Shown: positions 5,442 through 59,899 of the stretch, piece after piece | Layout of the letters: each line of letters begins with the position of its first letter | Numbering within the stretch: the stretch's first letter is position 1 | IMG/VR virus record: IMGVR_UViG_3300037258_000653 | Coordinates: 1,353 to 65,352 of that record | Reading direction: 5' to 3' (one strand) | Length of the DNA stretch: 64,000 nucleotides | DNA from: a virus | Taxonomy: Duplodnaviria > Caudoviricetes | The notes under the pieces: model-generated | Seen by the model: only the letters and a program-made list of their open reading frames with translations | The model's database searches: none | What the model was told of the DNA's origin: nothing | Position numbers and translations under genes: made by a program

Positions 5442-5848
5442 AGGCCGCGTTCGGCGTCGAGGCAGTCGGCTACGGCCTGTGGCTGGAGCTGCGCATGCCC
5501 CTGGCCATGGTCCGCGCGGTGGGCGCGGAGGAAGCACTGGGAACCCGGTCCTACGGGTCGCATTACCGTCCGTGGCTCGCGCAGGTCACCGGGACCGATC
5601 CCCGGTACGGGCTGGCCCGGCAGTTCGTCCGCGCCCGGATCGACTACCGCGGTGCCAACAGCCGGGCCACCCGGGGCGCCTGGTTCTGGTGGACGCTCGA
5701 CGAGGGGCTCCTCTATGAGACCAGGTACCTGTCGGCGTGGAGCCGGCAGGAGCACCGGTTCCTGACGGCCTCCGGCGGCGATGTCAGGGACGTCACCGGG
5801 GAGGAGGCCCTGGCGTGGGCAAGCGGTATCTCGGCACAGACGTCCTGA
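5438..5848 (+). CDS. Hypothetical protein upstream of the ibrA-like gene
   Basis: GTGA overlap; RPWLAQVTGTDPRYGLARQFVR. Confidence 0.65.
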   Translation: MKAAFGVEAVGYGLWLELRMPLAMVRAVGAEEALGTRSYGSHYRPWLAQVTGTDPRYGLARQFVRARIDYRGANSRATRGAWFWWTLDEGLLYETRYLSAWSRQEHRFLTASGGDVRDVTGEEALAWASGISAQTS

Positions 5849-7029
5849 CCGCGGCCCGGCAGCGGATCTGCCGGGTGTTCGAGGACTTCCCCCGGGTCTA
5901 CGTCTCGTTCAGCGGCGGGAAAGACAGTTCGGTCCTACTCGACCTGGCCTGCGCCGAGGCCCGGCGCCGAGGCCGCCGCATCGGCGTCCTGTTCATCGAC
6001 CTCGAGGCTCAGTACAAGATGACGGTCAGCTACATCGCCGCGATGATGGAGCGCAACAGCGACATCGCCGACCCGCACTGGGTGGCGCTGCCGCTGAACC
6101 TCCGCAACGCCGTCAGCCAGTTCGAGCCGCAGTGGATGTGCTGGGAGCCCGGCCGCGAGGCCAGCTGGGTCCGCCAGCCCCCGGCCGGCGCGATCACCCG
6201 CGAGGACTACTTCCCGTTCTTCCGCCGGCGCATGGAGTTCGAGGAGTTCACCCCGTCTTTCAGCCACTGGTACGCCGGCGGCATCCACCGCGGGAAGCTG
6301 ACCTGCTGCCTCGTCGGGATCCGCACCCAGGAATCCCTCAACCGGTGGCGTGCCATCGCCGGCCGCAAGAACACCCACGACGGCCTCCAGTGGACTACCT
6401 GGGTCGGCGGCCCCGCCTACAACGCCTACCCCATCTACGACTGGCGCACCGAGGACATCTGGGGATACACCGCCCGGGAGAAGATGCCCTACAACCCGCT
6501 GTACGACCGGATGCACCAGGCCGGCCTGACCATCCATCAGGCCCGGATCTGCCAGCCCTACGGCGACGATCAGCGCAAGGGCCTGTGGCTCTACCAGATG
6601 ATCGAGCCCGAGACCTGGGGCCGCGTCGTCGCGCGGGTCAGCGGCGCGAACTTCGGCGCGATCTACGCTCGCCAGACCGGCAACGTGCTGGGCCGGATCA
6701 AGGTCACCAAGCCGGACGGGATCACCTGGCAGCAGTTCGCCGAGCGGCTCCTGGAATCCATGCCCCCGGCCGCCGCCGAGCACTACCGAAACAAGATCGC
6801 CGTGTTCGCCAAGTACTACCGCGACCGCGGCTACGACGAGATCCCCGACGAGGGGCCGGCCAGCGCGAAGGGCCAGCCGTCCTGGACCCGGATCTGCAAG
6901 ACGATCCTCGGCAACGACTACTGGTGCAAAGGCCTGACATTCAGCCCCACCACCTCCGAGGGATATTCGAGATACATGCAGCTCATGAAGCGCAGGAGGC
7001 AGGAATGGGGCCTGATGTCGTCGCGGTGA
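5815..7029 (+). CDS. ibrA: IbrA/YbdN-like PAPS-reductase-family PP-loop protein (DUF3440 C-terminus)
   Basis: VSFSGGKDSS PP-loop; LVGIRTQESLNR; YPIYDWRTEDIW; RICQPYGDDQRKGL; ICKTILGNDYWCKGLTF. Confidence 0.9.
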   Translation: MGKRYLGTDVLTAARQRICRVFEDFPRVYVSFSGGKDSSVLLDLACAEARRRGRRIGVLFIDLEAQYKMTVSYIAAMMERNSDIADPHWVALPLNLRNAVSQFEPQWMCWEPGREASWVRQPPAGAITREDYFPFFRRRMEFEEFTPSFSHWYAGGIHRGKLTCCLVGIRTQESLNRWRAIAGRKNTHDGLQWTTWVGGPAYNAYPIYDWRTEDIWGYTAREKMPYNPLYDRMHQAGLTIHQARICQPYGDDQRKGLWLYQMIEPETWGRVVARVSGANFGAIYARQTGNVLGRIKVTKPDGITWQQFAERLLESMPPAAAEHYRNKIAVFAKYYRDRGYDEIPDEGPASAKGQPSWTRICKTILGNDYWCKGLTFSPTTSEGYSRYMQLMKRRRQEWGLMSSR

Positions 7030-33293: not shown

Positions 33294-33874
33294 CGTGCAC
33301 CTGCCAGTGCTAGGGCGCGGTCCCAGCCGGACGCCGGCCGGGGCGCGGCATCGGCGGGGGCGGCGCTGAACGGGTAGGTCGTGCGCTGCGCGGCGTGCTG
33401 CGCGGACACGCCGGCGAAGGTGACCGGGACCGGGCCGATCCGGCCGACGGGGTCGGGGTCGCCGGGGTCCTGGTAGCAGAGGGTCATGTGGGCGGTGAAC
33501 CCGTGGGCGGAGGCGATCTCGATGCCGGCGGCGGCCAGGGCCTCCTCGGCGTCGCGGCGCAGGACGTCCAGGGCCGGCGAGTCGACGATGGCGACGATCG
33601 CGTCGCCGCCGTCGCCGCCGGTGAACCGGGCGTGCCCGGACACGGTGGCCGCCAGCGGGGGCCGGGCGGCCAGCGACGCGGCGGCGCTGTTCACCGCGGC
33701 GGCGGAGATGCCGGCGGAGTCGCCGAGGTAGGCGATCGTGACGTGCATGTCGGCCGGGTCGAGGCCGCCGTCGACGGCGAGCTGCTCCGCGACTTCCGGC
33801 GGCGGGTACAGGGCGATCATGCAGGCGCCGGTGAAGTCCGGCTGGCTGCCCGCTTGCTGCTCCTGGCCGGTCAT
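33290..33874 (-). CDS. 2H phosphoesterase (2'-5' RNA ligase / Acb1-like)
   Basis: Two HxT motifs, MHVTIAYLG and FTAHMTLCY; overlaps both the portal and protease genes. Confidence 0.85.
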   Translation of the reverse strand: MTGQEQQAGSQPDFTGACMIALYPPPEVAEQLAVDGGLDPADMHVTIAYLGDSAGISAAAVNSAAASLAARPPLAATVSGHARFTGGDGGDAIVAIVDSPALDVLRRDAEEALAAAGIEIASAHGFTAHMTLCYQDPGDPDPVGRIGPVPVTFAGVSAQHAAQRTTYPFSAAPADAAPRPASGWDRALALAGAR

Positions 33875-35280
33875 GCCGCGGCCCCGAGCGCGTTCCACGC
33901 CGCCTGGTTGCGGCGGAGCATCTCGACTGCGTCCCAGGGCCGCAGCCGCAGCACCGCCTGCGCGGCCTGGCCGCCGTCGCCGGCGTCCTGCCCGGCCGGG
34001 GCCAGCTCGCCGGCGCCTGGCGAGGGCGGCATCCCGGCCGGCAGGCCGCCGGGCGGCGGCGAGCTGATCATCTTCATGTCCGGCAGGCCGACGATCTTCG
34101 CGGCGTCGTGCGGGTCGCATCCCGAGGTCACCAGCACGGCGAACGCCCCGGCCTTGGCGGTCAGCTCGAGGTTGTCCTGCTCCCGGTTGACCGGCGACGG
34201 GTAGGAGAAGTCGAACTCCACGCCGTCGCCGGTGGCGCCGAACTTCGGCAGGTACTGGTAGTTCAGGACGTCGCGCCAGCGGCGGAGCCGGGGCGCGACC
34301 TTCCACGCCGCGAAGATCTCCTCGCCGGTCTGGGCGTTCGCCCTGTTCACGTCATCGACGAGCCCGGTCATGATCTTGTGCATGCCGGCGGACTCGCGGA
34401 TCCGGTCACCGCCGGTGGACATCAGGTTCGCGAAGTCCATGTCCTTCGCGGAGGCTGACGTGGGCACCCAGGTGACGCCCTCGAGGACCGCGACCCGGTG
34501 GGCGCGGGAGACGCCGCGGTGCGCGTCGCGCCACCGGTCGGTCAGCTCATCCCATTCCTCGTCCGAGATGCGGTGATCGACGCTCAGCACTCCGTCGGGC
34601 CGCGCGGAGTTGTAGAAGAACTGCTTGTTGTACTGGGCGGCGTACCGGACGGCGTCGATCTCGTCCAGGACGGGCTGCACCCAGCCGGTCCCGTTGTAGG
34701 GATCCATCGGGTCGGGCAGCGGGTTGAAGATCACCTCGTCGGGCAGCAGCGGGATCCGCTCCCGCCCGTCGGGCGTGGAGTACACCCAGCCCCGCAGGTA
34801 GGTCTCCGGGTCGGGCACCGGCGTCATCCGGTCCGGGCGCACCGGCCAGATCCCGATCGGGAGATCGCTGCCCGGCAGCCGGGTCAGCACCCAGTGGCAC
34901 TTGCCGGTGAGCTCCTGGTACAGCTGGGAGATCTCGAACAGCCGGGACCGGGACCAGAACTTGTTCGGCCTCTTCAGCAGCGCCAGCGCGGCGTGCTGGA
35001 CGACCTCGGTGCGCTGGTCAGAACCCTGGCTGGACGTGGAGTAGCGGACCCGGCCGTCCTGCGGCTGCTGGCGGTACAGGCCCCACGCCGGGCCGGCTGT
35101 CGCCTCGGCGAGCAGCCCGGCGTTGGAGTGCGTCGTCCCGTTCGAGCCGAAAGCCCGCAGCAGCCGCTCGTCCGGGCTCGTTCCCGTCGGCATCGCCCGG
35201 GCCACGGCCTCGCCGATCGGCACCGGCGGCCTGTCCTGCGGGCCGGCCGCCGCGGCAATCGCCTTCCCGAGCAGGCTCAC
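33871..35280 (-). CDS. Portal protein (HK97-type)
   Basis: LLKRPNKFWS, IWPVRPDRM, FFYNSARPDGVL, SAKDMDF, VNRANA. Confidence 0.95.
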   Translation of the reverse strand: MSLLGKAIAAAAGPQDRPPVPIGEAVARAMPTGTSPDERLLRAFGSNGTTHSNAGLLAEATAGPAWGLYRQQPQDGRVRYSTSSQGSDQRTEVVQHAALALLKRPNKFWSRSRLFEISQLYQELTGKCHWVLTRLPGSDLPIGIWPVRPDRMTPVPDPETYLRGWVYSTPDGRERIPLLPDEVIFNPLPDPMDPYNGTGWVQPVLDEIDAVRYAAQYNKQFFYNSARPDGVLSVDHRISDEEWDELTDRWRDAHRGVSRAHRVAVLEGVTWVPTSASAKDMDFANLMSTGGDRIRESAGMHKIMTGLVDDVNRANAQTGEEIFAAWKVAPRLRRWRDVLNYQYLPKFGATGDGVEFDFSYPSPVNREQDNLELTAKAGAFAVLVTSGCDPHDAAKIVGLPDMKMISSPPPGGLPAGMPPSPGAGELAPAGQDAGDGGQAAQAVLRLRPWDAVEMLRRNQAAWNALGAAA

Positions 35281-35651
35281 TGGCCCGTCAGCTCCAGGTC
35301 CAGGGCCAGCAGCGACACGCCGGTCACGACCCAGCCCCACACCGGGCCGGCGTGAAACGCCCCGATATCGACCGAGGTCAGCGCGGCCACGGCGATCACG
35401 TGCTCACGGGCCTGCGCCACGAGTGCCTGAGCGCGGCCCCGGCCCGGACGCTCGCGGCCCCGGCTCCGCGCGAGCACGGAGCTGACCGCGCCGATGCCGG
35501 TCCCCAGCAGCGACCGGCGTCCTGACGGGGCTCCGGCCGCGGTCACCGGCGGCCTGCCAGGCGACGCGCGCGAGACCACCCGGCCAGGGGCCGGGCAGCC
35601 CGCCCCGGCAGCGAGCCGGGAACCGTGACGACCGCCACGCTCTGCCTCCAC
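35277..35651 (-). CDS. Small membrane protein upstream of the portal gene
   Basis: Two hydrophobic segments; GTGA overlap with the portal gene. Confidence 0.55.
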   Translation of the reverse strand: MEAERGGRHGSRLAAGAGCPAPGRVVSRASPGRPPVTAAGAPSGRRSLLGTGIGAVSSVLARSRGRERPGRGRAQALVAQAREHVIAVAALTSVDIGAFHAGPVWGWVVTGVSLLALDLELTGQ

Positions 35652-35784
35652 CGCAGGGCGCCCCGCGACCGCAGGACGCGCTGTGTGCGATCACTGTAAC
35701 TCACAGAAACCGTAAATCCTGCGGTGTAATGGCTCCAGAACGCTAAATCTTGTTGCCAAGAAGGCGGATTGGACGGCAGGACAC

Positions 35785-36132
35785 TTGCAGGACGTCGCGA
35801 AGATGCTCTGGCCGTCCATCGTCGAGACTCTCGCCGCGCTGCCGGACGATCCCGCGTACGCCGCGCTCCGGAAGCTCATCGAGCGCTACGCCAAGGTCAT
35901 CGACGGCCTCCCCGAGCACGGCGACGCCCGCACCCGCGACCAGGCCTGGGGCCTGCGGTGGATCGGCCCCGAGCTCCTGCGCGCCCTCGACGCCCTCGGC
36001 GCCACCCCCGAGGCGAAGGCCCGCATCGACAAGCTCGCCAGCGCAGGCAAGGGAGGAGGCGGGAAACCCGATGCCTCCGGCGGCAAGCTCCCTGGCCTCC
36101 GCAGCGCCCTCGCTTCGCGCAGCGCCCCGTAA
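35785..36132 (+). CDS. Terminase small subunit
   Basis: IERYAKVID..IGPELLRALDALGATPEAKA; overlaps the terL start. Confidence 0.8.
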   Translation: MQDVAKMLWPSIVETLAALPDDPAYAALRKLIERYAKVIDGLPEHGDARTRDQAWGLRWIGPELLRALDALGATPEAKARIDKLASAGKGGGGKPDASGGKLPGLRSALASRSAP

Positions 36133-37684
36133 CCTCCGCGGCAAGACCACCCCGCGGCTGTTCACCCCGCCGCTGCGGCAGCTGTCCCGCCGGACCAGCA
36201 ACGGCTACTACGTCGCCGACTTCGCCGAGGCCATCGGCACCCCGCTGCAGCCCTGGCAGCGGTGGGCCGCCATCCACGCCATGGAGCTGCTGCCCGGCGG
36301 CGAGTACCGGTTCAAGATCGTCCTGGTCATCGTCGCCCGCCAGAACGGCAAGTCGAACCTGAAGAGGGCCGTCACCCTCTGGCGGATGTACATGCAGCCC
36401 AGGTGCCGCGTCCTCGGCATCGCCCAGGACCTCTCCCTGGCCCGCGACCAGTGGCAGATGTGCCAGGACACCATCCAGGAAGACGCCGACCTGCTGGAGG
36501 AGTGGGGCGGCGTCCGGAACGTCAACGGCGACGAGAAATTCTGGCTCGCCAACAAGGCCCTCTACGCCATCAAGGCCCCCAACCGGAAGGCCGGCCGCGG
36601 CGGCTCCAACGACGAAGTCAACATCGACGAGCTCCGCGAGCATCAGACATGGAAACCATGGGCCGCCGTCTCCAAGACCACCATGGCCCGCCCGAACAGC
36701 CAGATCTGGTGCATGTCCAACGCCGGCGACGACACCTCGGTCGTGCTCAACCGGCTCCGCGACCGGGCGCTCACCGGCGACGACCCCACCATCGGCCTCT
36801 TCGAGTGGTCAGGCGCCTACGACGACGACGGTGACAGCTACTGCGCCATCGACGACTGGGCCCAGATAGCCCAGGCCAACCCCGTCCTCGGCTCGCTCAT
36901 CTCAGCCGCCGCCATCGGCTCCTCGATGAGCAACGACCCGCCCGACATCTACCGCACCGAGGTCCTGTGCCAGCGCGTCCGCCAGATCGACGGCGCCATC
37001 AGCATGATCGCCTGGGGCAGCTGCTCCGACCCCGGCGTCACCATGGACTCCCTCCGCACCCGCCTGTGCTGCGGCTTCGACGTCGCGCCCGACGACGGCC
37101 ACGCCACCCTCGCCGTCGCCGCCAGGACCGGCGACGGGAAGATCCGCGGCGAGATCGTCAAGTCCTGGCCCTCCGCCATGGCCGCCCGCGCCGAGCTCCC
37201 CGCCATCCTCGCCCGCATCAGGCCCTGCGTCGTCACCTGGTTCCCCGCCGGGCCCGCCGCCGCGCTCGCCCCCATCATGTGCAACCCCGGCGGCCGGCCC
37301 GTCAAGCTCGAGAAAGCCGGCCCTGGCCGCACCGCCTGGGTCGAGCTCACCGGCGCCGACGTCGCCAAGGCCTGCCAGGGCCTCGGCAACCTCATCAAGG
37401 GCCGCCAGATCCTCCACAACAACGACCCGCTCCTCAAGGACCACCTCGGCGCCGCCACCCGCCGCAAGGTCGGCGACGGCTGGGTCTTCGCCCGCCGCCC
37501 GAAGAACCCCGGCAACACCGCCCCCGCCCCCGACCCCGGCGAGGACCCCGCCGCCGCCGACCCGGCCGCCCAGCAGGCCGCCCGCGACGGCGCCGTCGAC
37601 GCCGCCTACGCCTTCGCCGGCGCCGTCCACGGCGCCCTCATCCTCCCCGAGCCGGCCCGCGCCCGGATCCGGCTCCTCGCCTAG
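36071..37684 (+). CDS. terL: Terminase large subunit
   Basis: LQPWQ Q-motif; VARQNGKS Walker A; VNIDELRE Walker B; MSNAGD; GFDVAPD nuclease; VDAAYA. Confidence 0.95.
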   Translation: MPPAASSLASAAPSLRAAPRNLRGKTTPRLFTPPLRQLSRRTSNGYYVADFAEAIGTPLQPWQRWAAIHAMELLPGGEYRFKIVLVIVARQNGKSNLKRAVTLWRMYMQPRCRVLGIAQDLSLARDQWQMCQDTIQEDADLLEEWGGVRNVNGDEKFWLANKALYAIKAPNRKAGRGGSNDEVNIDELREHQTWKPWAAVSKTTMARPNSQIWCMSNAGDDTSVVLNRLRDRALTGDDPTIGLFEWSGAYDDDGDSYCAIDDWAQIAQANPVLGSLISAAAIGSSMSNDPPDIYRTEVLCQRVRQIDGAISMIAWGSCSDPGVTMDSLRTRLCCGFDVAPDDGHATLAVAARTGDGKIRGEIVKSWPSAMAARAELPAILARIRPCVVTWFPAGPAAALAPIMCNPGGRPVKLEKAGPGRTAWVELTGADVAKACQGLGNLIKGRQILHNNDPLLKDHLGAATRRKVGDGWVFARRPKNPGNTAPAPDPGEDPAAADPAAQQAARDGAVDAAYAFAGAVHGALILPEPARARIRLLA

Positions 37685-38424
37685 GCCTGGGTCACCACGG
37701 CCGGCGACACGATGAGGTCCGTCCGCCCGATCCGGATCCTGTCGCCCTTCGCCAGCAGCGCCGGCCCGTAGACCCGCTCGTCGTTGAGCCACGTGCCGTT
37801 CGTGCTCGCCAGGTCCTCCAGGTACCACCCGTCGTCCCGCAGCACGCACTTCGCGTGCTTTACCGACGCGAACTCATCGGCCACGACCAGGTCCCCCGTC
37901 TTCCCGATCGTGAAGTCAGCGCTGAACAGCAAGCCAGCGCCAGTGCCGCCCCGGATGATCAGCGCCGTCAGCGGAAGCGCCGGGTCCGCATCCCAGCCCG
38001 GCAGGAAACCGGGGTGATCGGACCAGCTCGCCGCGGCAGCGCGCAGCGTCGGGCAGCGATCCAGCGTCGCCGACCTCGGCCGGCCGCGCCCGTCCTGCCC
38101 GCAGCCCAGGCAATGCGGCAGCCGCGCCTCGATCGTGCCGTCCTCGCCGTGCCGCTCCGCCCAGGTGCAGTGCTCGCGGCGGATCCGGCGCTTCACCTCG
38201 ATCTCCCGCAGCATCCGGCCGGTCGCGGACGGCGGCAGCCCGCGCAGTTCCTGCGCCGCGATGATCTCCCTCGTTGCCTGGTCGGCCATCATGGCCATCA
38301 GCACGCTGACGAGGACCTCACGTTCCTCTTCGCTCTCCCCGGCCTGGGCCCCGGCCTCGGCCATTGACGACAGGAACTCCGCGTCATCAGCCAGCCGGCC
38401 GTCGATGAAACCGCCGATGCTCAC
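37681..38424 (-). CDS. DUF6221-like domain fused to an FHA domain
   Basis: FIDGRLADD..REIEVKRRI..WSDHPGF; IGK..ASVKHA..WYLEDLASTNGTWLN..LAKGDRIRIG. Confidence 0.8.
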   Translation of the reverse strand: MSIGGFIDGRLADDAEFLSSMAEAGAQAGESEEEREVLVSVLMAMMADQATREIIAAQELRGLPPSATGRMLREIEVKRRIRREHCTWAERHGEDGTIEARLPHCLGCGQDGRGRPRSATLDRCPTLRAAAASWSDHPGFLPGWDADPALPLTALIIRGGTGAGLLFSADFTIGKTGDLVVADEFASVKHAKCVLRDDGWYLEDLASTNGTWLNDERVYGPALLAKGDRIRIGRTDLIVSPAVVTQA

Positions 38425-40150: not shown

Positions 40151-40579
40151 CTACCAGCGCGTGGTGGGCGCGGGCTGGGCTCCGGCGTCCTGGCGAGCCA
40201 GGTACTGGTCGATGCGGTGGTGCCATTGCGGCGGCCGTTTCGCCGCGGTCGCGCGGGCGTGGAGCTCCCCGGGCGTTGCGGTGCAGTGGACGATGCGGGC
40301 GTTCGCGGCGGCGTACTGGGCGCGGCGGGCTGGTCCGGGGTCGGTGTCGATGATCCAGACGCGGTAGCCCTTGCGGTGCCATTTGAGGGCCTCGACGATG
40401 GCGGCGTGGCGGGCTTCCCTGGTGACGGCGGTGATGTGGTCGCTGTGGCCGTGGCTGGTCTGCGAGCCGAGCGCCTGGGCGAGCTGGTCGTAGTCGATGA
40501 GGAGGTCGCCGGGGTGCGCGTGCTGGGCGGCGTAGGTGGTCTTGCCGCTGCAGGGCGCGCCGGTGATGACGGTCAGCAT
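40151..40579 (-). CDS. Small P-loop ATPase/kinase
   Basis: VITGAPCSGKTTY..LIDYDQLA; typical neighbour of packaging HNH genes. Confidence 0.85.
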   Translation of the reverse strand: MLTVITGAPCSGKTTYAAQHAHPGDLLIDYDQLAQALGSQTSHGHSDHITAVTREARHAAIVEALKWHRKGYRVWIIDTDPGPARRAQYAAANARIVHCTATPGELHARATAAKRPPQWHHRIDQYLARQDAGAQPAPTTRW

Positions 40580-40934: not shown

Positions 40935-41267
40935 TTACCAGGTGGTGGTGGGGCGCGGCGCGGGGTCCGCGGGCCGGGTGTTCTGCGCGGCGCGGTAGCC
41001 GCCGCCTTCGAGGGCGGTCTTGCGGGCGTGGCAGGACGCGGGGCCTGAGCAGAGGGCGCGGAGGTTGGCCAGGTCGTGGGTGCCGCCCTGGCTGACGGGG
41101 ATGGTGTGGTCGACCTGGAGGCGGCGGCCTCGGCGGCGGCATGCTGAGCACTTGCCGTAGCGGCCGCCGGCCTGCTCCAGGACGATGGCGGCGTTGCGGA
41201 CGTACTCGGAGTCGTGGTAGGTCGCGTCGGATGCGGCGCGGGTTTCGGGGGTGTTCTTCCACGGCAT
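40935..41267 (-). CDS. HNH endonuclease (HK97 gp74-like packaging HNH)
   Basis: CSAC..QVDHTIPVSQGG..NLRALC..CHARKT. Confidence 0.9.
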   Translation of the reverse strand: MPWKNTPETRAASDATYHDSEYVRNAAIVLEQAGGRYGKCSACRRRGRRLQVDHTIPVSQGGTHDLANLRALCSGPASCHARKTALEGGGYRAAQNTRPADPAPRPTTTW

Positions 41268-41599
41268 GGCTACCGCCTGGTGCGGCGCCCCTGGTACAGG
41301 CGGGTGCTGGCGTGGCCGAGGATGCCGCCGGCGGTCTCGCGGCGGTGAGCGAGGAGCCAGGTGGATGCGCGGGTGAGGTGGTGCGCGCACCACCAGCGGA
41401 TCCGGGTGCGGACAGGCAGGTCGGCTACCTGGCTGATGGCTGCCCAGCTGCCCGGCCGCATGCGCTTCTGGGCCGCGTGCCAGCGCCGCTCGAGCTCGGC
41501 AATCTGCTCCGTGCTGAGGCTCACTGCGGTGCTCCCGGGCTGGGCAGTGGTTCCGTGCTGGTCAGCCCGCGCATCAGGGAATGTCCTCAGGCCCGATCG

Positions 41600-41887
41600 T
41601 CACGGGAGCCGCCATTCTGCCCGGTAGCCCGGGTGGTCGCGCCAGGCCGCGGCGTCGAGCTTGACGGCGACTGCGGCGGCGCGGGCCCGGCCGATGGCCA
41701 TGGCCTGGGCGACGCGGGTTGCGTGCTGGTCGGCGAGGAGCCGGTTCATGTCGGCGGTGGCTTCGGCGAGCTGGGTGACGCGGCTGCGTTTGGCCTCGAT
41801 GTCGTCCAGGATGCGGTGGGTCGCGATCGGCGGATAGCCGTCGCGCAGGGAGCAGGCGACGGCCGCGGCGACTTCCGGGGCACTCAT
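41600..41887 (-). CDS. DUF6221-like protein
   Basis: RILDDIEAKR..AAWRDHPGYRAEWR. Confidence 0.7.
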   Translation of the reverse strand: MSAPEVAAAVACSLRDGYPPIATHRILDDIEAKRSRVTQLAEATADMNRLLADQHATRVAQAMAIGRARAAAVAVKLDAAAWRDHPGYRAEWRLP

Positions 41888-41945
41888 CACCGAGGCGGGG
41901 ATCATCGGCGCGACGCCGACGGCCGCCGCGATGGCATGGCGAGCC

Positions 41946-42425
41946 TCATAGGTCCGGGTGCCATTCCGGCCGGTAATCGGGATGGCCGTCCCAGATCGCG
42001 GCGACATCGATGACGTCGCGTTTCAGCGCGGCGGCGATCTTCTCCCAGGCTGTTTTCTCGGCGCCGGTGCTCACGACGGCCGCCGCGCCGGCGCACTCGT
42101 AGCGGTTGATGATCTTCCGCATGGCCGCGATCTCGCGCAGGGCGCGGAACGGGTCGTGGCCAGCTATGAAGATTGCATCTGCGCGGGTGAAACCGCGTTC
42201 GCGGAGCCTGTCGGCGCCGTACCACGGCCTGTCGGCGCCGTGCCACGGCAGCTCCTGGCCAAGCAGGCCGCGTGCCGCGTTTGCCTGGGCCTCTTCCTTG
42301 TCCAGGCGCGCCGCCACGAACATCGGAAGCGCCATCAGCGCCTGCCAGTCAGCATGCCGGGCGGCGCGGGCCTGGCGGCTGGCTGCCAGGCGTTCCTGGC
42401 GGGCGTGCTTGTCACTGATGTTCAT
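41946..42425 (-). CDS. DUF6221-like protein
   Basis: FVAARLDKEE..HDPFRALREIAAMRKII..WDGHPDYRPEW. Confidence 0.8.
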   Translation of the reverse strand: MNISDKHARQERLAASRQARAARHADWQALMALPMFVAARLDKEEAQANAARGLLGQELPWHGADRPWYGADRLRERGFTRADAIFIAGHDPFRALREIAAMRKIINRYECAGAAAVVSTGAEKTAWEKIAAALKRDVIDVAAIWDGHPDYRPEWHPDL

Positions 42426-42748
42426 GGCCGCCGCGCTTCCGGGTAGTCCGGATGGTCGCTCCAGGTCGCAGCTACCTGGCTGAGCACGTCTTCCAGCGTA
42501 TTCCGCTTGGCGGCCACGTCGCGGAGCGCCCAGCCGGGGTCTTGCACTGGCTGGGCGCCGGTCAGCATGCCGGGGCATCGCTGCCACTGCCACTGGCCGT
42601 GGTGGGTGTATCCGGTGATCCCGATCAGGTTGCGCAGCGGGATCACCGGGTGCCCGCAGCGGATGCAGAGGTGCCCGTTGATGCAGCGCTCGAGGTCGTC
42701 GAGGCGCGCGGCGGTGAACGCCGCCAGCGCGGCCGGAGGCGGTGTCAT
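42422..42748 (-). CDS. DUF6221-like protein
   Basis: FTAARLDD..DPGWALRDVAAKR..WSDHPDY. Confidence 0.75.
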   Translation of the reverse strand: MTPPPAALAAFTAARLDDLERCINGHLCIRCGHPVIPLRNLIGITGYTHHGQWQWQRCPGMLTGAQPVQDPGWALRDVAAKRNTLEDVLSQVAATWSDHPDYPEARRP

Positions 42749-43101
42749 GGCCGCTGGCCGCGTTTCCAGTTGCAGCGCCGGAGCGTGTGCCTGCGCCAGT
42801 CCCCGGTTTCCCAGATCCCGCGTTTCCAGGTGCCGTCGCGGCCCTTCTTCTCCGGGACGGCGCAGATCCGGGTGCCGCAGCATTCGCAGGGGATCGGCTC
42901 GGTGGCCTGGTCGCCGGCGGTGATGTAAGGGCAGCTTTCTGCGGTGCAGCGGCAGTCTTCGGCGAGGTCAGGATTGGTGGCGACCTGGGCGGCGAGGTCC
43001 AGGTGGTCGCTGAGGATCCGGCGCTCGGACGTCCAGGTGCTGAGGTAGATGCGGCGGGATGAGGTGTCAGCGAGGGCTGCGCCCGGGTCTGGCGAGGGCA
43101 T
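42745..43101 (-). CDS. Cys-rich hypothetical protein
   Basis: CRC..C..CECC..C; ATGA overlap. Confidence 0.5.
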   Translation of the reverse strand: MPSPDPGAALADTSSRRIYLSTWTSERRILSDHLDLAAQVATNPDLAEDCRCTAESCPYITAGDQATEPIPCECCGTRICAVPEKKGRDGTWKRGIWETGDWRRHTLRRCNWKRGQRP

Positions 43102-43154
43102 GGCCCAAGGCTATCGGCGGTCCTGGCGTGGTGCGGGCGGCCTAGGCTCGCGGC

Positions 43155-43466
43155 ATGGTCGCGGATGATCGGACGCTTGCCGATGAGGTCATCGACCTCG
43201 CGGAGATCTACGCCGGTGACTACCCGGCGCCCCTGTCGGCGTGGCAGCAGCAGTTGCTCCGCCAGCTGTTCAGCGAGCCGCGCCCGCGGGCCTGCCTGGC
43301 GCACGCCGCGGGGACGGCCATGGCGCGGCGGAACATCCAGCGGCTCGTCATCGAGCAGCAGGTGCTGCACGGTGAGCATGTCCACGTCGCCACGCCGGGC
43401 GGCACGTTCTGCGCGGGCGGCGATCCGGGCTGCCCGCTGCCGCAGTGGGAACGCCCTGGCTTGTGA
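43155..43466 (+). CDS. Hypothetical protein
   Basis: ORF after a TAGGCT -10-like box; contains LSAWQ. Confidence 0.55.
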   Translation: MVADDRTLADEVIDLAEIYAGDYPAPLSAWQQQLLRQLFSEPRPRACLAHAAGTAMARRNIQRLVIEQQVLHGEHVHVATPGGTFCAGGDPGCPLPQWERPGL

Positions 43467-44143
43467 TGACGGCCGGGCTGGCCCGCTGGGAAGATGGCCG
43501 CATGATGATGAACGAGGCTACGGCGGCTGCTGACGCGGAGTGGATGCCCCGGATGGCCGGCGAGCTGTACGAGCACGCCGGGGGCTCCCTCACCGCCGCG
43601 CAGGACGAGGTGATCGCCGCGCTGTACGCGGCCGGGCCGGACGGCCGGCCGAAGTCGGGTGTGGTGGCCGCCTGCCTCCCGCCAGGGGAGGAGCTGCCGG
43701 GGCTGCATGCGGCGGTGGTGCTGGCGTGGCTGTTCCTGGAGGAGCGCCAGCGGATCCTGTGGTCCGCGCCGGGCACGGACGCTTGCCGCCACGCGCACCA
43801 GGACCTGGCTGACCTGATCACCGGCGTCCCGGAGCTGGCCGCCGGAACGCGGATTTCCTGGGCGAACGGGGCGCAGGAGATCCGCTCGGCCACCGGCAGC
43901 GTGGTGCGTTTCCGGGCGCGCCGGCCGCGCCGGGATCTCAGCCTGCGCGGCGTCACCGGGCGCCGGGTCCTGGTCACTGAGGCCAGGGAACTCTCGGACT
44001 GGCAGGCCTGGGACCTGGGCGCCGGGGCCACGCAGCAGCTGTGGACGTCGCATCGTGCGCCGCTGCCCGATACTCCGCTGGCCAGCGTCCGCGCGGGCCA
44101 GGCCGTCGCACGCGTCGCCTACTTCGGGCCGGCCGGGCCATGA
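43463..44143 (+). CDS. Degenerate terminase-large-subunit ATPase-domain homologue
   Basis: LTAAQ..PDGR..AWLFL..RILWSA..LITGVPEL..ANGAQEI..GSVVRFRAR..RGVTGRRVLVTEA; Walker A and B degenerate. Confidence 0.65.
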   Translation: MMTAGLARWEDGRMMMNEATAAADAEWMPRMAGELYEHAGGSLTAAQDEVIAALYAAGPDGRPKSGVVAACLPPGEELPGLHAAVVLAWLFLEERQRILWSAPGTDACRHAHQDLADLITGVPELAAGTRISWANGAQEIRSATGSVVRFRARRPRRDLSLRGVTGRRVLVTEARELSDWQAWDLGAGATQQLWTSHRAPLPDTPLASVRAGQAVARVAYFGPAGP

Positions 44144-45030
44144 GCCGTATTTACTTCCACACCCCGTCCGGCGAGGCGGAGCTGTGGGGCGGTGAGAAGG
44201 CATGGCTGCGCAGCGTGTGCGAGGACATGGCGATCGGCCTCCTGCCCGGCGACTGGCGGCACGAGCGGTCCCGCGAGCTGATCGCCCCGGGCCACGACCT
44301 GGCCGACCCGCGCTACCAGCCGCCCCAGGAGTACCTGAGGTGGCGTAACCACCTGGAGACGGCGCTGCAGGTAGGGCACGGCACGCTGGCATGGAACGGC
44401 TGCCACGTCGACGAGTACCACCTCCTGCTGAACACCGTCATGCGGGCGGGCAGCGACCCGGTGAAGCTCGCCGCGCGGATCGCGGGACAGAGCGAGATCC
44501 ACTGCTACATCGAGGGCATCGACCGGGCCTGGGCCGCGCAGCTCATCGACGCCGGGCTCGGCGCGGGGGTGTTCCGCGACCTGTCGGGCATCGCGAACGC
44601 GCCTGGCTGGGATGGCGTAACCCGGCTGCTCCGCGACCGCGACGACGAGCCCGTAGTCCTGTCCTACTCGATCTCGGACCCGTTCCCCGGCCCGTACGCG
44701 CCGGGCTGGACTCCGCCCGAGGACCCGGCGTGGATGCCGGAGTTCTACCGCGGCCGCCCCGGCGACTGGGCGGCCCTGGCCGACGGCGAGCGCGCCCAGG
44801 AGACAGCGGACGCGCTGTGGGAGCGGTGGGAGGAGCTGGGCGCGGCCGAGCAGTGGCGCATCGGGATCACCGCGGTGCGCGCGGAAGAAGCCGGGCTGCG
44901 GATCGACCCGGCGCGGTGGGACGGCTTCCTGTTCGGCCACAAGCTCAGCGTCCTGGACGTGCTCGCCCCTGACTGGCGGGAGCGCCTGGACGCCGCGTTC
45001 CCGGCGCCATCGGCAGCCGTGACCTCGTGA
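44140..45030 (+). CDS. Hypothetical protein
   Basis: ATGA overlap; SRIYFHTPSGEAEL.G.E; GSDPVKLAARI..QSEIHCYIEG. Confidence 0.75.
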   Translation: MSRIYFHTPSGEAELWGGEKAWLRSVCEDMAIGLLPGDWRHERSRELIAPGHDLADPRYQPPQEYLRWRNHLETALQVGHGTLAWNGCHVDEYHLLLNTVMRAGSDPVKLAARIAGQSEIHCYIEGIDRAWAAQLIDAGLGAGVFRDLSGIANAPGWDGVTRLLRDRDDEPVVLSYSISDPFPGPYAPGWTPPEDPAWMPEFYRGRPGDWAALADGERAQETADALWERWEELGAAEQWRIGITAVRAEEAGLRIDPARWDGFLFGHKLSVLDVLAPDWRERLDAAFPAPSAAVTS

Positions 45031-45320
45031 CGGCGCGGACCGGCGCGGGCAACCCGGTCGTCGAGTGCCTGACTCACGGCCCGATGATCTACCGGATGGG
45101 CTGCGACTGGTGGGAATGCGTCGGGTTCGACGGCGAGGGATGCAGCGTGCCTCTTGTCTCCTCGGAGGACGCCGCGCGCGAGGACCACGGGATACCCGGC
45201 ATCAGGGTGACCCGGGCAGCCTGACGCTCAGCGTCGTGCGGCATCGGCCCGGCTGCCGGCAGGCACCGGGCGCGAGAGGAGCACCGTGGTCCGGGCGGAG
45301 CGGGCCGGACCGCAGACAGC

Positions 45321-46347
45321 TCAGGTGGTGACCGGGGCCGTGGTGAGCATCAGCGGCTTGACCGGTTCACCAGTCCGCGAGTCGCGGTCCCCGGCCCAGG
45401 CCGCGAAGCCGTTGCACCGGCACGGCTCATACGGCCCGGGCGTCGCCGACCCGATGTAGCCGTGGCAGACGTCGGTGTTCGCGGTCAGTCCGCTAGCTGC
45501 GTGGACGTGCCAGTGGTGGCCGCAGCCGCATATCGCGGTCTCGGTCATGTGCTGGTCCTTTCGGGGGCTAGGTGGCGGCTGGCCACGCCTAGGCGAGCCG
45601 CGTGCCGAACGGCGCGTCGATGGTCAGCTCGATGTGGTGCTCGGCGCCGATCCCGGTCGGCAGGATGCGCAGCGGCCACGGCGGCATCGGCCGGTCGTCG
45701 CTGGCCGTGCCGACGCCGAGCAGCCATGTGCCGTGCCGGTAGCGGGCCATGACGTGCATCGCGGTGTCGTCGAGGGCGATTAGGCAGGCGTGCCAGCCGA
45801 GGTCGTTCACGGCGGGGCCGCGTGCTTCGTACCGGGCGTGGCCAACGCGGCCGTCGATCTCGATGCCGTCGACGGCGACCGTGCCGTCGCCGACGCCGTG
45901 GATGGTGATCACGGACTGGTCCTCACCCAGCTAGCCGCCCTGGCCTGGGCGCTGGCGAACCTGGGAGCCCGGCGTTCGCGCCGGGTGCTGGCCCGACGGG
46001 CGCGACTGCATCGTGGGTGTCTACGAGCTGGGGTGGCGGGCGTGGAGCCAGCTAGAGCCAGCCTCGGCGCAAGCGGCTGCGCCCGGCGCAGCCGCGACCC
46101 GGCGCCCCGCAGCGACGACGGGTCAGGCATCATCGCGGGCCTGGCTGCTGCCGCGACGGGCCCACGCCCGCGCGAAGACCTGGCCGCTCCACCCGAACGC
46201 GGCCGCGGCGGTGATGGCGGCACTGGCGGTATCCCAGTGGCTGGCCAGTGCCGCGCGGGTGGCTATCGCGGCCATCATCGCCGCGGCCGCGAGAGCCGCC
46301 AGGGACAGGCCGCCGAGGACGCGTACGGTGCCGTCGTCCGGGGTCAT
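45321..46347 (-). CDS. Cluster of small hypothetical genes (45321-45548, 45589-45912, 46123-46347)
   Basis: RBSs and stop/start overlaps. Confidence 0.45.
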
Positions 46348-56993: not shown

Positions 56994-58163
56994 TCAGTCC
57001 CCCTTGACATTCACAATTTGGCGAAGCTCATGCTTGATCTCGACCAAGTCCGCTGCGTCTCGCATGACCTGCTCAACGTCCTTGTACGCCTGCGGGATCT
57101 CGTCAAGGAACTCGTCGGAGCGGCCCCACTCGATGCCCTCCATCGCCTCATCGAGCTGCGCGCGGGTGAACGTCTTGCGAGCGGCTGACCGGGAGTAGTT
57201 CCGGCCCGCGCCGTGCGGAGAGCTGTTCAGCGCCAGGCGGTTCCCCTTCCCGGTGACGACATAGGAGCGGGTGCCCATCGATCCGGGGATCAGGCCGGGC
57301 GTTCCCTCGCTGGCGTCGATCGCGCCCTTCCGCGACAGCCACACCTGCTTGCCGAAGTGGGTTTCCTGCTCGGTGTAATTGTGGTGACACTGCACCACCT
57401 CCAGCCCTGACACCGGCCGGCCGGTCCAGTCCTGCACGCAGCAGATGACCCGGTGCATCATCTCCTGGCGGTTCAGCAGGGCGAAGTGCTGCGCCCACCG
57501 CAGGTCGCGGATGTAGTCCCAGAACTCGCGGTCGCCCTGCACGAGGTAGGCGAGGTCCGGGTCGGGCAGCCTGATCCACCGCTGACGGCATTGTTCCTGC
57601 GCGATCCTGATGTGCCGCACGGCCAGCTTGTTGCCGACACCCCGGCTCCCGCTGTGCAGGAACAGCCAGACGCAGCCGCGCTCGTCAATGCTGACCTCGA
57701 TGAAGTGGTTGCCGCTGCCGAGCGAGCCGAGCTGCATGCGCCAGTTCGGGGCGATCTGCTCGGCGCTGGCCGAGCCGTCCCGCGCCTCCAGCTCGGCGAT
57801 GCGCTCCGACGTCTCGTCGCTGTCGAGGGCCGTGTTGTACTTGCCGGCCGACAGCGGGATCGCGTTCTCGATCGCCACGCGCAGCGCCGGGAGGTCGCCG
57901 CGGTTCCTGACGTCGTCCATCGTGAGCTGGGTGCGGACGGCATGCATCCCGCAGCCGATATCGACTCCCACCGCAGCGGGCATGATCGCGCCGAGCGTCG
58001 GGATGACTGACCCGACCGTGGCGCCCTTGCCGAGGTGAGCGTCGGGCATGAGCGCGATGTGGGGGTAAATGAACGGCATCTGCGACGCTCGGACAGCCTG
58101 CTCGCGAGCGTTCGGCTCCAGGATGGATGCCCAGTTCATGAGGCGCTTGCTGACCTGTTCCAT
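56994..58163 (-). CDS. rtcB: RtcB RNA 3'-phosphate/5'-OH ligase
   Basis: MPDAHLGKGATVG, VGVDIGCG, GSLGSGNHFIE, LHSGSRG, CHHNY, RKGA, PGSMG, SSPHGAGR, DEIPQAYKD. Confidence 0.97.
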   Translation of the reverse strand: MEQVSKRLMNWASILEPNAREQAVRASQMPFIYPHIALMPDAHLGKGATVGSVIPTLGAIMPAAVGVDIGCGMHAVRTQLTMDDVRNRGDLPALRVAIENAIPLSAGKYNTALDSDETSERIAELEARDGSASAEQIAPNWRMQLGSLGSGNHFIEVSIDERGCVWLFLHSGSRGVGNKLAVRHIRIAQEQCRQRWIRLPDPDLAYLVQGDREFWDYIRDLRWAQHFALLNRQEMMHRVICCVQDWTGRPVSGLEVVQCHHNYTEQETHFGKQVWLSRKGAIDASEGTPGLIPGSMGTRSYVVTGKGNRLALNSSPHGAGRNYSRSAARKTFTRAQLDEAMEGIEWGRSDEFLDEIPQAYKDVEQVMRDAADLVEIKHELRQIVNVKGD

Positions 58164-59401: not shown

Positions 59402-59899
59402 TCATGTGGCGGCTGCCGGGGACATCGCGGCCAGGACAGAGTGCCGGTGGTGCAGGACGACGGTGCCGGCGCAGGCCACGTTCAGGGACACGGGCCGGGG
59501 TGTCTCGATCCGGACGAGGTGGTGGCAGCGGTCCAGGACCGCGGGCGGCAGGCCGTGGTCCTCGGCGCCGAGGAGGTAGCAGGCGCGCGGCGGGTGCCGG
59601 AAGCCGGCCAGCGGCACGGCGTCGTCGGTGAGCTCGACGCCGACCAGCGCGGCGGACCACGGCAGGTGCGCGGCCAGGTCGGTGATGCTGGCGAAGTGGA
59701 GCAGCGGGACGGCATGCGGGGTGCTGACGGTATCGCTGGCCTGCCGGTCGTAGCGGCAGCCGACGGTGAACACGAACGCGGCGCCGTACAGCCACGCTGA
59801 GCGGAGCAGCGACCCGGTGTTCGCGCTGTTCTTGGGGTGCCAGATCCCGACGGCGAAGTAGCCGCGGCGGGCGTCGCGGTCAGCGCGGCGGCGGGTCAC
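59402..59899 (-). CDS. SpoU/TrmH-family RNA 2'-O-methyltransferase
   Basis: N.GSLLRSA..YLLGAEDHGL..SLNVACAGTVV. Confidence 0.9.
   Translation of the reverse strand: MTRRRADRDARRGYFAVGIWHPKNSANTGSLLRSAWLYGAAFVFTVGCRYDRQASDTVSTPHAVPLLHFASITDLAAHLPWSAALVGVELTDDAVPLAGFRHPPRACYLLGAEDHGLPPAVLDRCHHLVRIETPRPVSLNVACAGTVVLHHRHSVLAAMSPAAAT

Follow-up and report, generated by a model that had tools for sequence, protein, structure and literature searches.

A stand-alone homologue of the terminase ATPase core without P-loop, lid and nuclease in a high-GC phage record

The open reading frame (ORF) at 43463..44143 on the plus strand of a 64,000-nucleotide stretch of viral DNA (the window; bases 1353-65352 of the single 65,352-bp IMG/VR record IMGVR_UViG_3300037258_000653, Caudoviricetes) encodes a homologue of the N-terminal ATPase core of HK97-type large terminases (TerL). 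The predicted protein, referred to here as the candidate, has the terminase ATPase fold and stands beside an intact TerL gene of the same phage. A first-pass annotation, made from the letters of the DNA, had described it as a stand-alone terminase ATPase domain that has lost its active site, and this description agrees with the homology and structure data given below. Tentatively, and at somewhat less than even confidence, we read the candidate as a folded pseudo-ATPase that acts by binding alone and either modulates a terminase motor or disturbs its work. The gene and its lost and retained motifs are as follows; residue numbers refer to the 225-aa database protein P0001, which corresponds to a start at ATG 43466.

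43463..44143, plus strand: candidate, stand-alone TerL ATPase-core paralogue without P-loop, lid and nuclease
43601..43603, plus strand: Gln46 of the Q-motif LTAAQ, retained; conserved at 90% or more in an alignment of 47 relatives
43673..43702, plus strand: CLPPGEELPG, replacing the Walker A loop, which reads [PASCG]RQxxK[TSGD] in all 39 aligned terminase-like relatives
43946..43951, plus strand: Arg161-Gly162 (RG), located 11 residues ahead of the Walker B Glu, retained; at least 90% conserved among relatives
43967..43984, plus strand: VLVTEA, Walker B strand, with Asp replaced by Thr and Glu kept

Homology, fold and active-site residues

A tblastn search of 50,697 phage records with the candidate matched 71 of them, and each of the 40 matches listed falls within a gene annotated as terminase in a Mycobacterium phage (31% identity across residues 34-179, with E 5e-6). 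The TerL of phage Charlie (gp2) was aligned by blastp with 51 identities in 156 positions (33%, E 5e-15, 60 bits), while the resident TerL of the window is only 27% identical (pairwise E 0.002, 25 bits). A recent duplication of the resident TerL was therefore rejected as the origin of the candidate. It was likewise rejected as the small terminase subunit (TerS) of this phage, since a conserved small ORF (35785-36132) already fills the TerS position. HMMER searches against 1.84 billion representatives returned 50 matches at E ≤1e-3, with the candidate itself as the sole entry below 1e-10. Most of these matches are proteins of 470-535 aa with TerL motifs, and a profile of 47 relatives matches HK97 TerL (6z6d) with E 2.6e-12. 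No Pfam family was matched by the candidate at E ≤1, including TerL_ATPase and Terminase_6N, and none of nine members of its clade matches a terminase family.

Word-indexed homologue searches added few sequences. The single candidate protein retrieved itself only, and profile A1 retrieved the candidate, P0006 and P0033. Nothing was found in viral contigs with P0001, P0026 and P0009 or in genome contigs with P0006 and A4, and A3 found ordinary full-length TerLs only in viral contigs. By tblastn the proteins P0003 and P0004 matched 207 and 232 phage records, respectively, and among the matches listed (30 and 25) all are located on annotated terminase genes.

An AlphaFold2 model built with the alignment reached a predicted local distance difference test (pLDDT) score of 88 and a predicted template modelling score (pTM) of 0.87; a model from the single sequence (pLDDT 38.6) was unusable. 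Foldseek placed the terminases of HK97, P74-26, Sf6, D6E and T4 at the top, and a cluster N TerL ranks first among the viral structure models of BFVD. Because the alignment-based model leans on a terminase alignment, a single-sequence ESM Atlas model (pTM 0.80) was used as an independent check, and it gave template modelling (TM) scores of 0.76-0.79 to terminase ATPase models. The candidate model shows eight core β-strands and N-terminal Q-motif helices in addition to a low-confidence N-terminal hairpin. The hairpin aside, this strand count equals the eight strands described for the core of packaging ATPases in the accessible text of PMC9410871. The structural match to TerL anticipated by the first-pass annotation was thus recovered by both profile and structure comparison.

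All TerL motifs quoted in that annotation are present in the translation, and the alignment to Charlie and HK97 TerL bears out that Walker A is replaced, the Walker B Asp is lost and the nuclease domain is absent. The Charlie Walker A sequence CARQNMKT aligns with CLPPGEELP of the candidate, and the Charlie Walker B sequence ILDEA with LVTEA. Gln46, Arg152, Arg161, Gly162 and the core hydrophobic motifs are kept. The candidate ends at a position equivalent to about residue 230 of HK97 TerL, before the lid subdomain, around which residues R240, R254 and R270 of HK97 TerL are located (accessible text of PMC9410871), and before the C-terminal RNase H-like nuclease. From the equipment of a functional TerL only the ATPase core is therefore present; Walker A, the Walker B pattern hhhhDE, lid and nuclease are not. 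Without P-loop, Walker B Asp, lid and nuclease the candidate would be unable to hydrolyse ATP, to translocate or to cut DNA, and would have to act by binding. With the P-loop replaced, normal binding of ATP is excluded, in agreement with the catalytically dead domain described in the first-pass annotation. No role as a trans-acting arginine finger is claimed for Arg161: the aligned residue of HK97 TerL is His, and no classical arginine finger was found in HK97.

The candidate thus shares with the HK97-type TerL ATPase domain (6z6d; cluster N TerLs such as Charlie gp2; PHROG 9) the Q-motif, the eight-strand core, the RG pair and a Walker B Glu in register, and differs from it by the missing P-loop, the exchange of Asp for Thr, the missing lid and nuclease and its status as a second copy beside an intact TerL.

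A short P-loop-less clade and its cultured relatives

Of the 50 HMMER matches, 48 were aligned, omitting P0021 (879 aa) and P0039 (1493 aa). The terminase Walker A signature RQxxK is kept in all 39 rows carrying it, and is absent from the query and from eight proteins of 160-230 aa. The 39 rows include five short ones resembling cut gene calls, one of which clusters with a 479-aa member. Among the eight short proteins, the query and a homologue in the related phage L028, only P0036 has the D-E pair of Walker B. A tree of 50 rows, for which P0031, P0041, P0051 and P0052 were omitted as well, places all 10 short rows on one side of a branch with a support of 98 in the Shimodaira-Hasegawa-like approximate likelihood ratio test (SH-aLRT), and the same split received 94 after removal of the Walker A and B columns. 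According to these sequence comparisons the candidate belongs to a small, fast-evolving and patchily distributed clade in high-GC actinophages.

The eight short relatives are all metagenomic singletons on contigs of 0.9-8.8 kb. A relative of P0004 is present in the contigs L027/L028 with 78% identity, and the C-terminal ends of both proteins coincide. In L028 an HNH gene lies immediately downstream of the short gene; next come a TerL in convergent orientation, of the type found in the window, and the portal gene. The distance from the short gene to TerL is 0.9 kb. Identities between L028 and the window amount to 55% for TerL, 50% for the portal protein and 54% for HNH, but only to 32% for the short protein. 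In the window the candidate is located 2.1 kb from the HNH gene, which is on the opposite strand, and 5.8 kb from TerL.

A functionless relic, that is the 5′ remnant of a former or foreign terminase gene which stayed open because stops are rare at 73% guanine plus cytosine (GC), has to be weighed here. Indeed, an open frame by itself carries little weight at this GC content, and the window is rich in long chance ORFs. The candidate has no close homologue, sits on a very long branch among unrelated accessory genes, and is missing from relatives with the same terminase. Nevertheless, the entire alignment with TerL, which begins at about residue 30 and extends to the last residues, is spanned by one unbroken reading frame at an estimated 1.6-1.9 substitutions per site. 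The GC content at codon positions 1, 2 and 3 (0.76/0.58/0.89) retains the periodicity of a coding sequence and resembles that of neighbouring genes. Furthermore, the losses are specific, hitting P-loop and Asp and sparing the hydrophobic motifs and the four conserved residues, and nine other proteins, the eight short ones and the L028 homologue, have the same truncated P-loop-less form and group with the candidate. The stop position common to P0004 and the L028 homologue and the location of the L028 gene upstream of HNH, not at the place expected for an old TerL, also argue against decay. We consider the relic improbable. Together with the conservation of a related family in cultured phages, for which peptides were detected (see below), these observations indicate that the candidate is a real gene which is probably maintained, as proposed earlier, and not a decaying relic.

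This related family is PHROG 6910, which matches the candidate better than any other PHROG does (E 1.7e-6, covering positions 16-106 of the 125 in the profile). The match is weak when compared to those of the cultured members Catdawg gp4 (E 1.5e-56) and Corndog gp5 (E 1.1e-50). PHROG 6910 is also matched by six of the nine clade members, the 125-aa protein of Catdawg is among the BFVD matches of the candidate model, and profile A1 detected gp4 (E 3e-9) in Catdawg in addition to the Catdawg TerL. Sequence profiles therefore assign the candidate clade and PHROG 6910 a distant relationship. The PHROG 6910 proteins (Corndog gp5/Catdawg gp4, 125-156 aa, annotated as 'hypothetical protein', cluster O mycobacteriophages) resemble the candidate as TerL-core fragments without P-loop in which the RG is kept, and as products of a fast-evolving actinophage accessory gene. 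Unlike the candidate, they begin past the P-loop position, so that Q-motif and first strand are missing, and they keep the Walker B D-E pair (LDE). At its N-terminus the candidate is longer by about 70 residues, which include the Q-motif, and its gene has other neighbours, whereas the PHROG 6910 genes adjoin methylase genes at their genome's left end.

In all 34 matching records, which all derive from Mycobacterium phages, the PHROG 6910 gene occupies a single site beside DNA methylase genes. Two allele types exist which are 47-48% identical, while the adjacent overlapping methylase gene is 96-99.5% identical in the same phages. The gene (gene 4/5; L030, L033-L036) is thus a hotspot of divergence, and alleles of the Corndog type have an additional Cys-rich C-terminal tail. 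The ratio of non-synonymous to synonymous substitution rates (dN/dS) is 0.65-0.76 between allele types; within types it ranges from 0.9 to 2.6 on low counts, namely 0-3 for synonymous and 5-9 for non-synonymous changes. A listing of proteins with N-terminally acetylated peptides in liquid chromatography-tandem mass spectrometry includes Corndog gp5 (accessible text of PMC4351075), which according to this is translated. These cluster O data speak to the family and not directly to the candidate.

The location of the cluster O gene raises the question whether the TerL core was re-purposed outside packaging, e.g. for nucleic-acid binding or for regulation in early infection, with the TerL fold serving as a scaffold. 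The related gene is part of a leftward early block in each of the Mycobacterium phages mentioned above, and single records label it 'DNA binding protein' and 'ASCE ATPase'. The Cys-rich tail of Corndog gp5 and the neighbours of the candidate in the window, which are not packaging genes, would fit such a role as well. These labels are unexplained annotations and not tests, however, and family searches of the candidate found no DNA-binding motif or other domain. Moreover, the sole other context available for the clade of the candidate, in L028, adjoins HNH and TerL. A role outside packaging therefore appears unlikely to us.

Possible roles of a P-loop-less terminase core

Replacement of the nucleotide-binding loop in a fold that is kept points to binding and not to enzymatic activity. 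Since bacterial immune sensors target TerL ATPase domains above all, and since the packaging motor operates as a ring, interference with packaging and immune stealth are obvious roles to consider for a dead core. For the reading as a modulator of a terminase motor, the dead core would cover a surface to which a TerL ATPase core normally docks. Such surfaces might be the lid of the neighbouring TerL subunit, the tail of TerS or another packaging partner. A dead core without lid could accept a neighbour yet not extend the ring. As a result, the terminase of the own phage would be tuned or the terminase of a competing phage poisoned, and the patchy spread and fast evolution would make poisoning of a competitor the likelier outcome. 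A dominant-negative subunit against competing phages, or packaging inhibitor, as proposed in the first-pass annotation, is a possible form of this role. Alternative partners would be TerS, HNH or a host sensor; as to HNH, the HK97 literature speculates about a contact of the HNH protein GP74 on the TerL nuclease domain, which is absent from the candidate. A co-folding run of the candidate with ATPase plus lid of the resident TerL (residues 125-435), made without controls, scored 0.00 and counts neither for nor against this role.

Several points weigh against this modulator role. Every binding partner proposed for the candidate is hypothetical. The gene is 5.8 kb apart from TerL and is part of an inverted island comprising four genes, unrelated and accessory, and the cluster O gene, adjoining methylase genes about 12 kb from TerL, gives no pointer to packaging. 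A genomic context was recovered for just one of the eight other short members. The end branches of the short rows (1.0-2.2 compared to a median of 0.46) are long, and long-branch attraction may aid the clade. The nearest relative among the 1.84 billion representatives is just 36% identical, so that selection on the candidate itself is not measurable by dN/dS. Finally, no second TerL-like match was found in four whole records of relatives (G001-G004) or in the flanks of eight related loci (L011-L018); according to this, the gene is dispensable for this type of terminase, accessory and patchy.

Interplay with host immunity, in the form of a decoy for Avs sensors, was one of the two proposals of the first-pass annotation. 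In this explanation the dead core soaks up or blocks a host sensor of TerL, or has lost its active site to avoid triggering such sensors. According to the accessible text of PMC13601566 and PMC11564622, terminase ATPase domains directly trigger Avs2, and so do the TerL-like proteins T4 vs.8 and Ksap2; the latter is weakly TerL-ATPase-like and triggers KpAvs2 (PMC11564622). The candidate model weakly matches the Avs3-bound terminase 8dgc_E, and the family shows the patchy distribution and fast evolution, with strongly diverged PHROG 6910 alleles (48% identity) beside a nearly constant methylase, that would suit such an interplay. The accessible text of PMC13601566 further describes a model of Upx binding an unfolded TerL ATPase core by β-augmentation, for which no nucleotide is needed, and Upx is a conceivable target of the candidate on the basis of that model.

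The known modes of recognition do not favour a decoy. SeAvs3 recognises active-site residues of the terminase and the bound ATP, and EcAvs2 is triggered by the isolated ATPase domain, the interface being sealed by a bridging ATP in contact with the ATP on the terminase (accessible text of PMC13601566). The features read by both sensors are absent from the candidate. In the published cases covered by these sources, binding of a TerL-like protein activates the sensor and does not block it. Our literature search turned up no TerL-derived anti-defence protein, and PADLOC found no model match for any of the seven island and flanking proteins. We therefore disfavour the Avs decoy and regard immune interplay in general as unlikely, even if loss of the active site may make the candidate invisible to Avs sensors.

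Second, truncated terminase ATPase genes span unrelated phage groups: Rak2-like jumbo phages, T4 with vs.8, and cluster O with gp4/gp5. A truncated 'terminase-like protein' besides TerL is a stated feature of Rak2-like jumbo phages (accessible text of PMC7760394). The 235-aa protein of Pectobacterium phage CBB is likened to the candidate by fold only (BFVD rank 37, TMq 0.61) and belongs to another terminase lineage and phage group. T4 vs.8, homologous to the ATPase domain of gp17, is also a stand-alone TerL-ATPase-like paralogue beside a normal TerL. It differs by keeping Walker A and B, neither of which is intact in the candidate, and by triggering EcAvs2 (accessible text of PMC13601566). Truncated terminase paralogues in other phages are thus already known, with unexplained function, and our literature search found no function for them. 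New here is a case of the HK97 type in actinophages, with Q-motif kept and P-loop replaced, and tied to PHROG 6910. The cultured relatives Corndog gp5 and Catdawg gp4 in M. smegmatis make the question of function testable.

As a broader idea, which we consider rather unlikely, P-loop-less TerL cores might be phage conflict proteins that evolved repeatedly and mimic the packaging ATPase without the ATP-loaded site read by sensors. They might cap or poison the terminase rings of rivals, titrate TerS or occupy sensors of the Upx type. If true, these would be the first TerL-derived pseudoenzymes in phage-phage or phage-host warfare.

The island, the packaging genes and the phage record

The ORF listing gives an open frame at 43445..44143 on the plus strand (232 aa counted from the first GTG). 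In-frame starts are GTG 43463 (226 aa), ATG 43466 (225 aa) and ATG 43502 (213 aa). The candidate is the second gene of the island.

43155..43466, plus strand: upstream coupled ORF, 103 aa, not TerL-like
44140..45030, plus strand: downstream coupled ORF, 296 aa, with homologues in Gordonia phage VanLee (gp61), Rhodococcus phage Trogglehumper (gp11) and one uncultivated virus genome (UViG)
45027..45224, plus strand: fourth and last ORF of the island, 65 aa, without family match

The upstream ORF terminates within GTGATGA, and the downstream ORF begins at an ATGA overlapping the stop codon of the candidate. Coupling to both neighbours is real, as noted in the first-pass annotation, provided that the candidate starts at 43463 or 43466. 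The C-terminal motif GEHVHVAT..G.FCA of the upstream ORF occurs also in two related phage contigs. This ORF was rejected as a further TerL fragment (phrog_9 E just 0.61, no blastp support), and the downstream ORF was rejected as the missing nuclease half because it shows no similarity to TerL. No TerL-like gene adjoins the homologues of the downstream ORF in VanLee and Trogglehumper. Promoter and terminator consensus scans of 42600-45700 found nothing. A GC-rich inverted repeat (ggtccgg...ccggacc) is located at 45289-45312, in the interval where the plus-strand island and the next minus-strand gene converge, and is possibly a bidirectional terminator without T tract.

The following packaging genes were assigned in the window.

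33871..35340, minus strand: portal protein (PF04860, E 4e-42)
35750..37684, plus strand: resident full-length TerL (PHROG 9, E 7.5e-51), with Walker A VARQNGKS (the sequence quoted in the first-pass annotation) at 36338 and Walker B IDEL
35785..36132, plus strand: small conserved ORF in the TerS position, directly upstream of TerL and overlapping the 5′ end of its ORF
40935..41393, minus strand: packaging-neighbourhood HNH endonuclease, with 54% identity to the HNH following the short TerL-like gene in L027/L028

The first 110 or so residues of the 644-aa TerL ORF are of low complexity and do not align in most relatives. The listed ORF is therefore probably over-extended, with the true start near 36083. 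The ORF in the TerS position shows 43-61% identity across seven related contigs and belongs to PHROG 10594 (function not assigned). Most genes of the window are on the minus strand; the TerS-TerL pair and the four-gene island at 43155-45224 are on the plus strand. The pair (33871-37684 region) is divergent from the portal gene and convergent with the operon bearing HNH, and L011-L018 and L028 have the same orientation wherever both genes are covered by the sequence. The usual order of packaging genes is HNH-cos-TerS-TerL-portal, and relative to this order the cassette is inverted. The TerL ORF of L018 (7800-9101 and upstream) comprises 918 aa, about 390 of which form an insertion that separates the Q-motif region from residues just past Walker A and looks like an intein in the P-loop.

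The record has a CheckV completeness estimate of 80%. Only one sequencing run contains the DNA of the window, a soil metagenome which may be its source; no RNA run is among the runs containing this DNA. Several further genes of the window suggest functions in RNA repair or modification.

56994-58163, minus strand: RtcB RNA ligase (E 9.6e-117)
40151-40579, minus strand: small P-loop kinase-like protein
59402-59899, minus strand: SpoU-type methylase
5737-7029, plus strand: PAPS-reductase/DUF3440 protein

Finally, the neighbouring small proteins encoded at 37681-38424, 41600-42007, about 41946-42400 and 42422-42883 (all minus strand) share a similar C-terminal HPDY/W..P motif and look like a paralogous family of an early operon. 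The product of 37681-38424 is a DUF6221 protein fused to an FHA domain, and similar proteins are encoded in L027.

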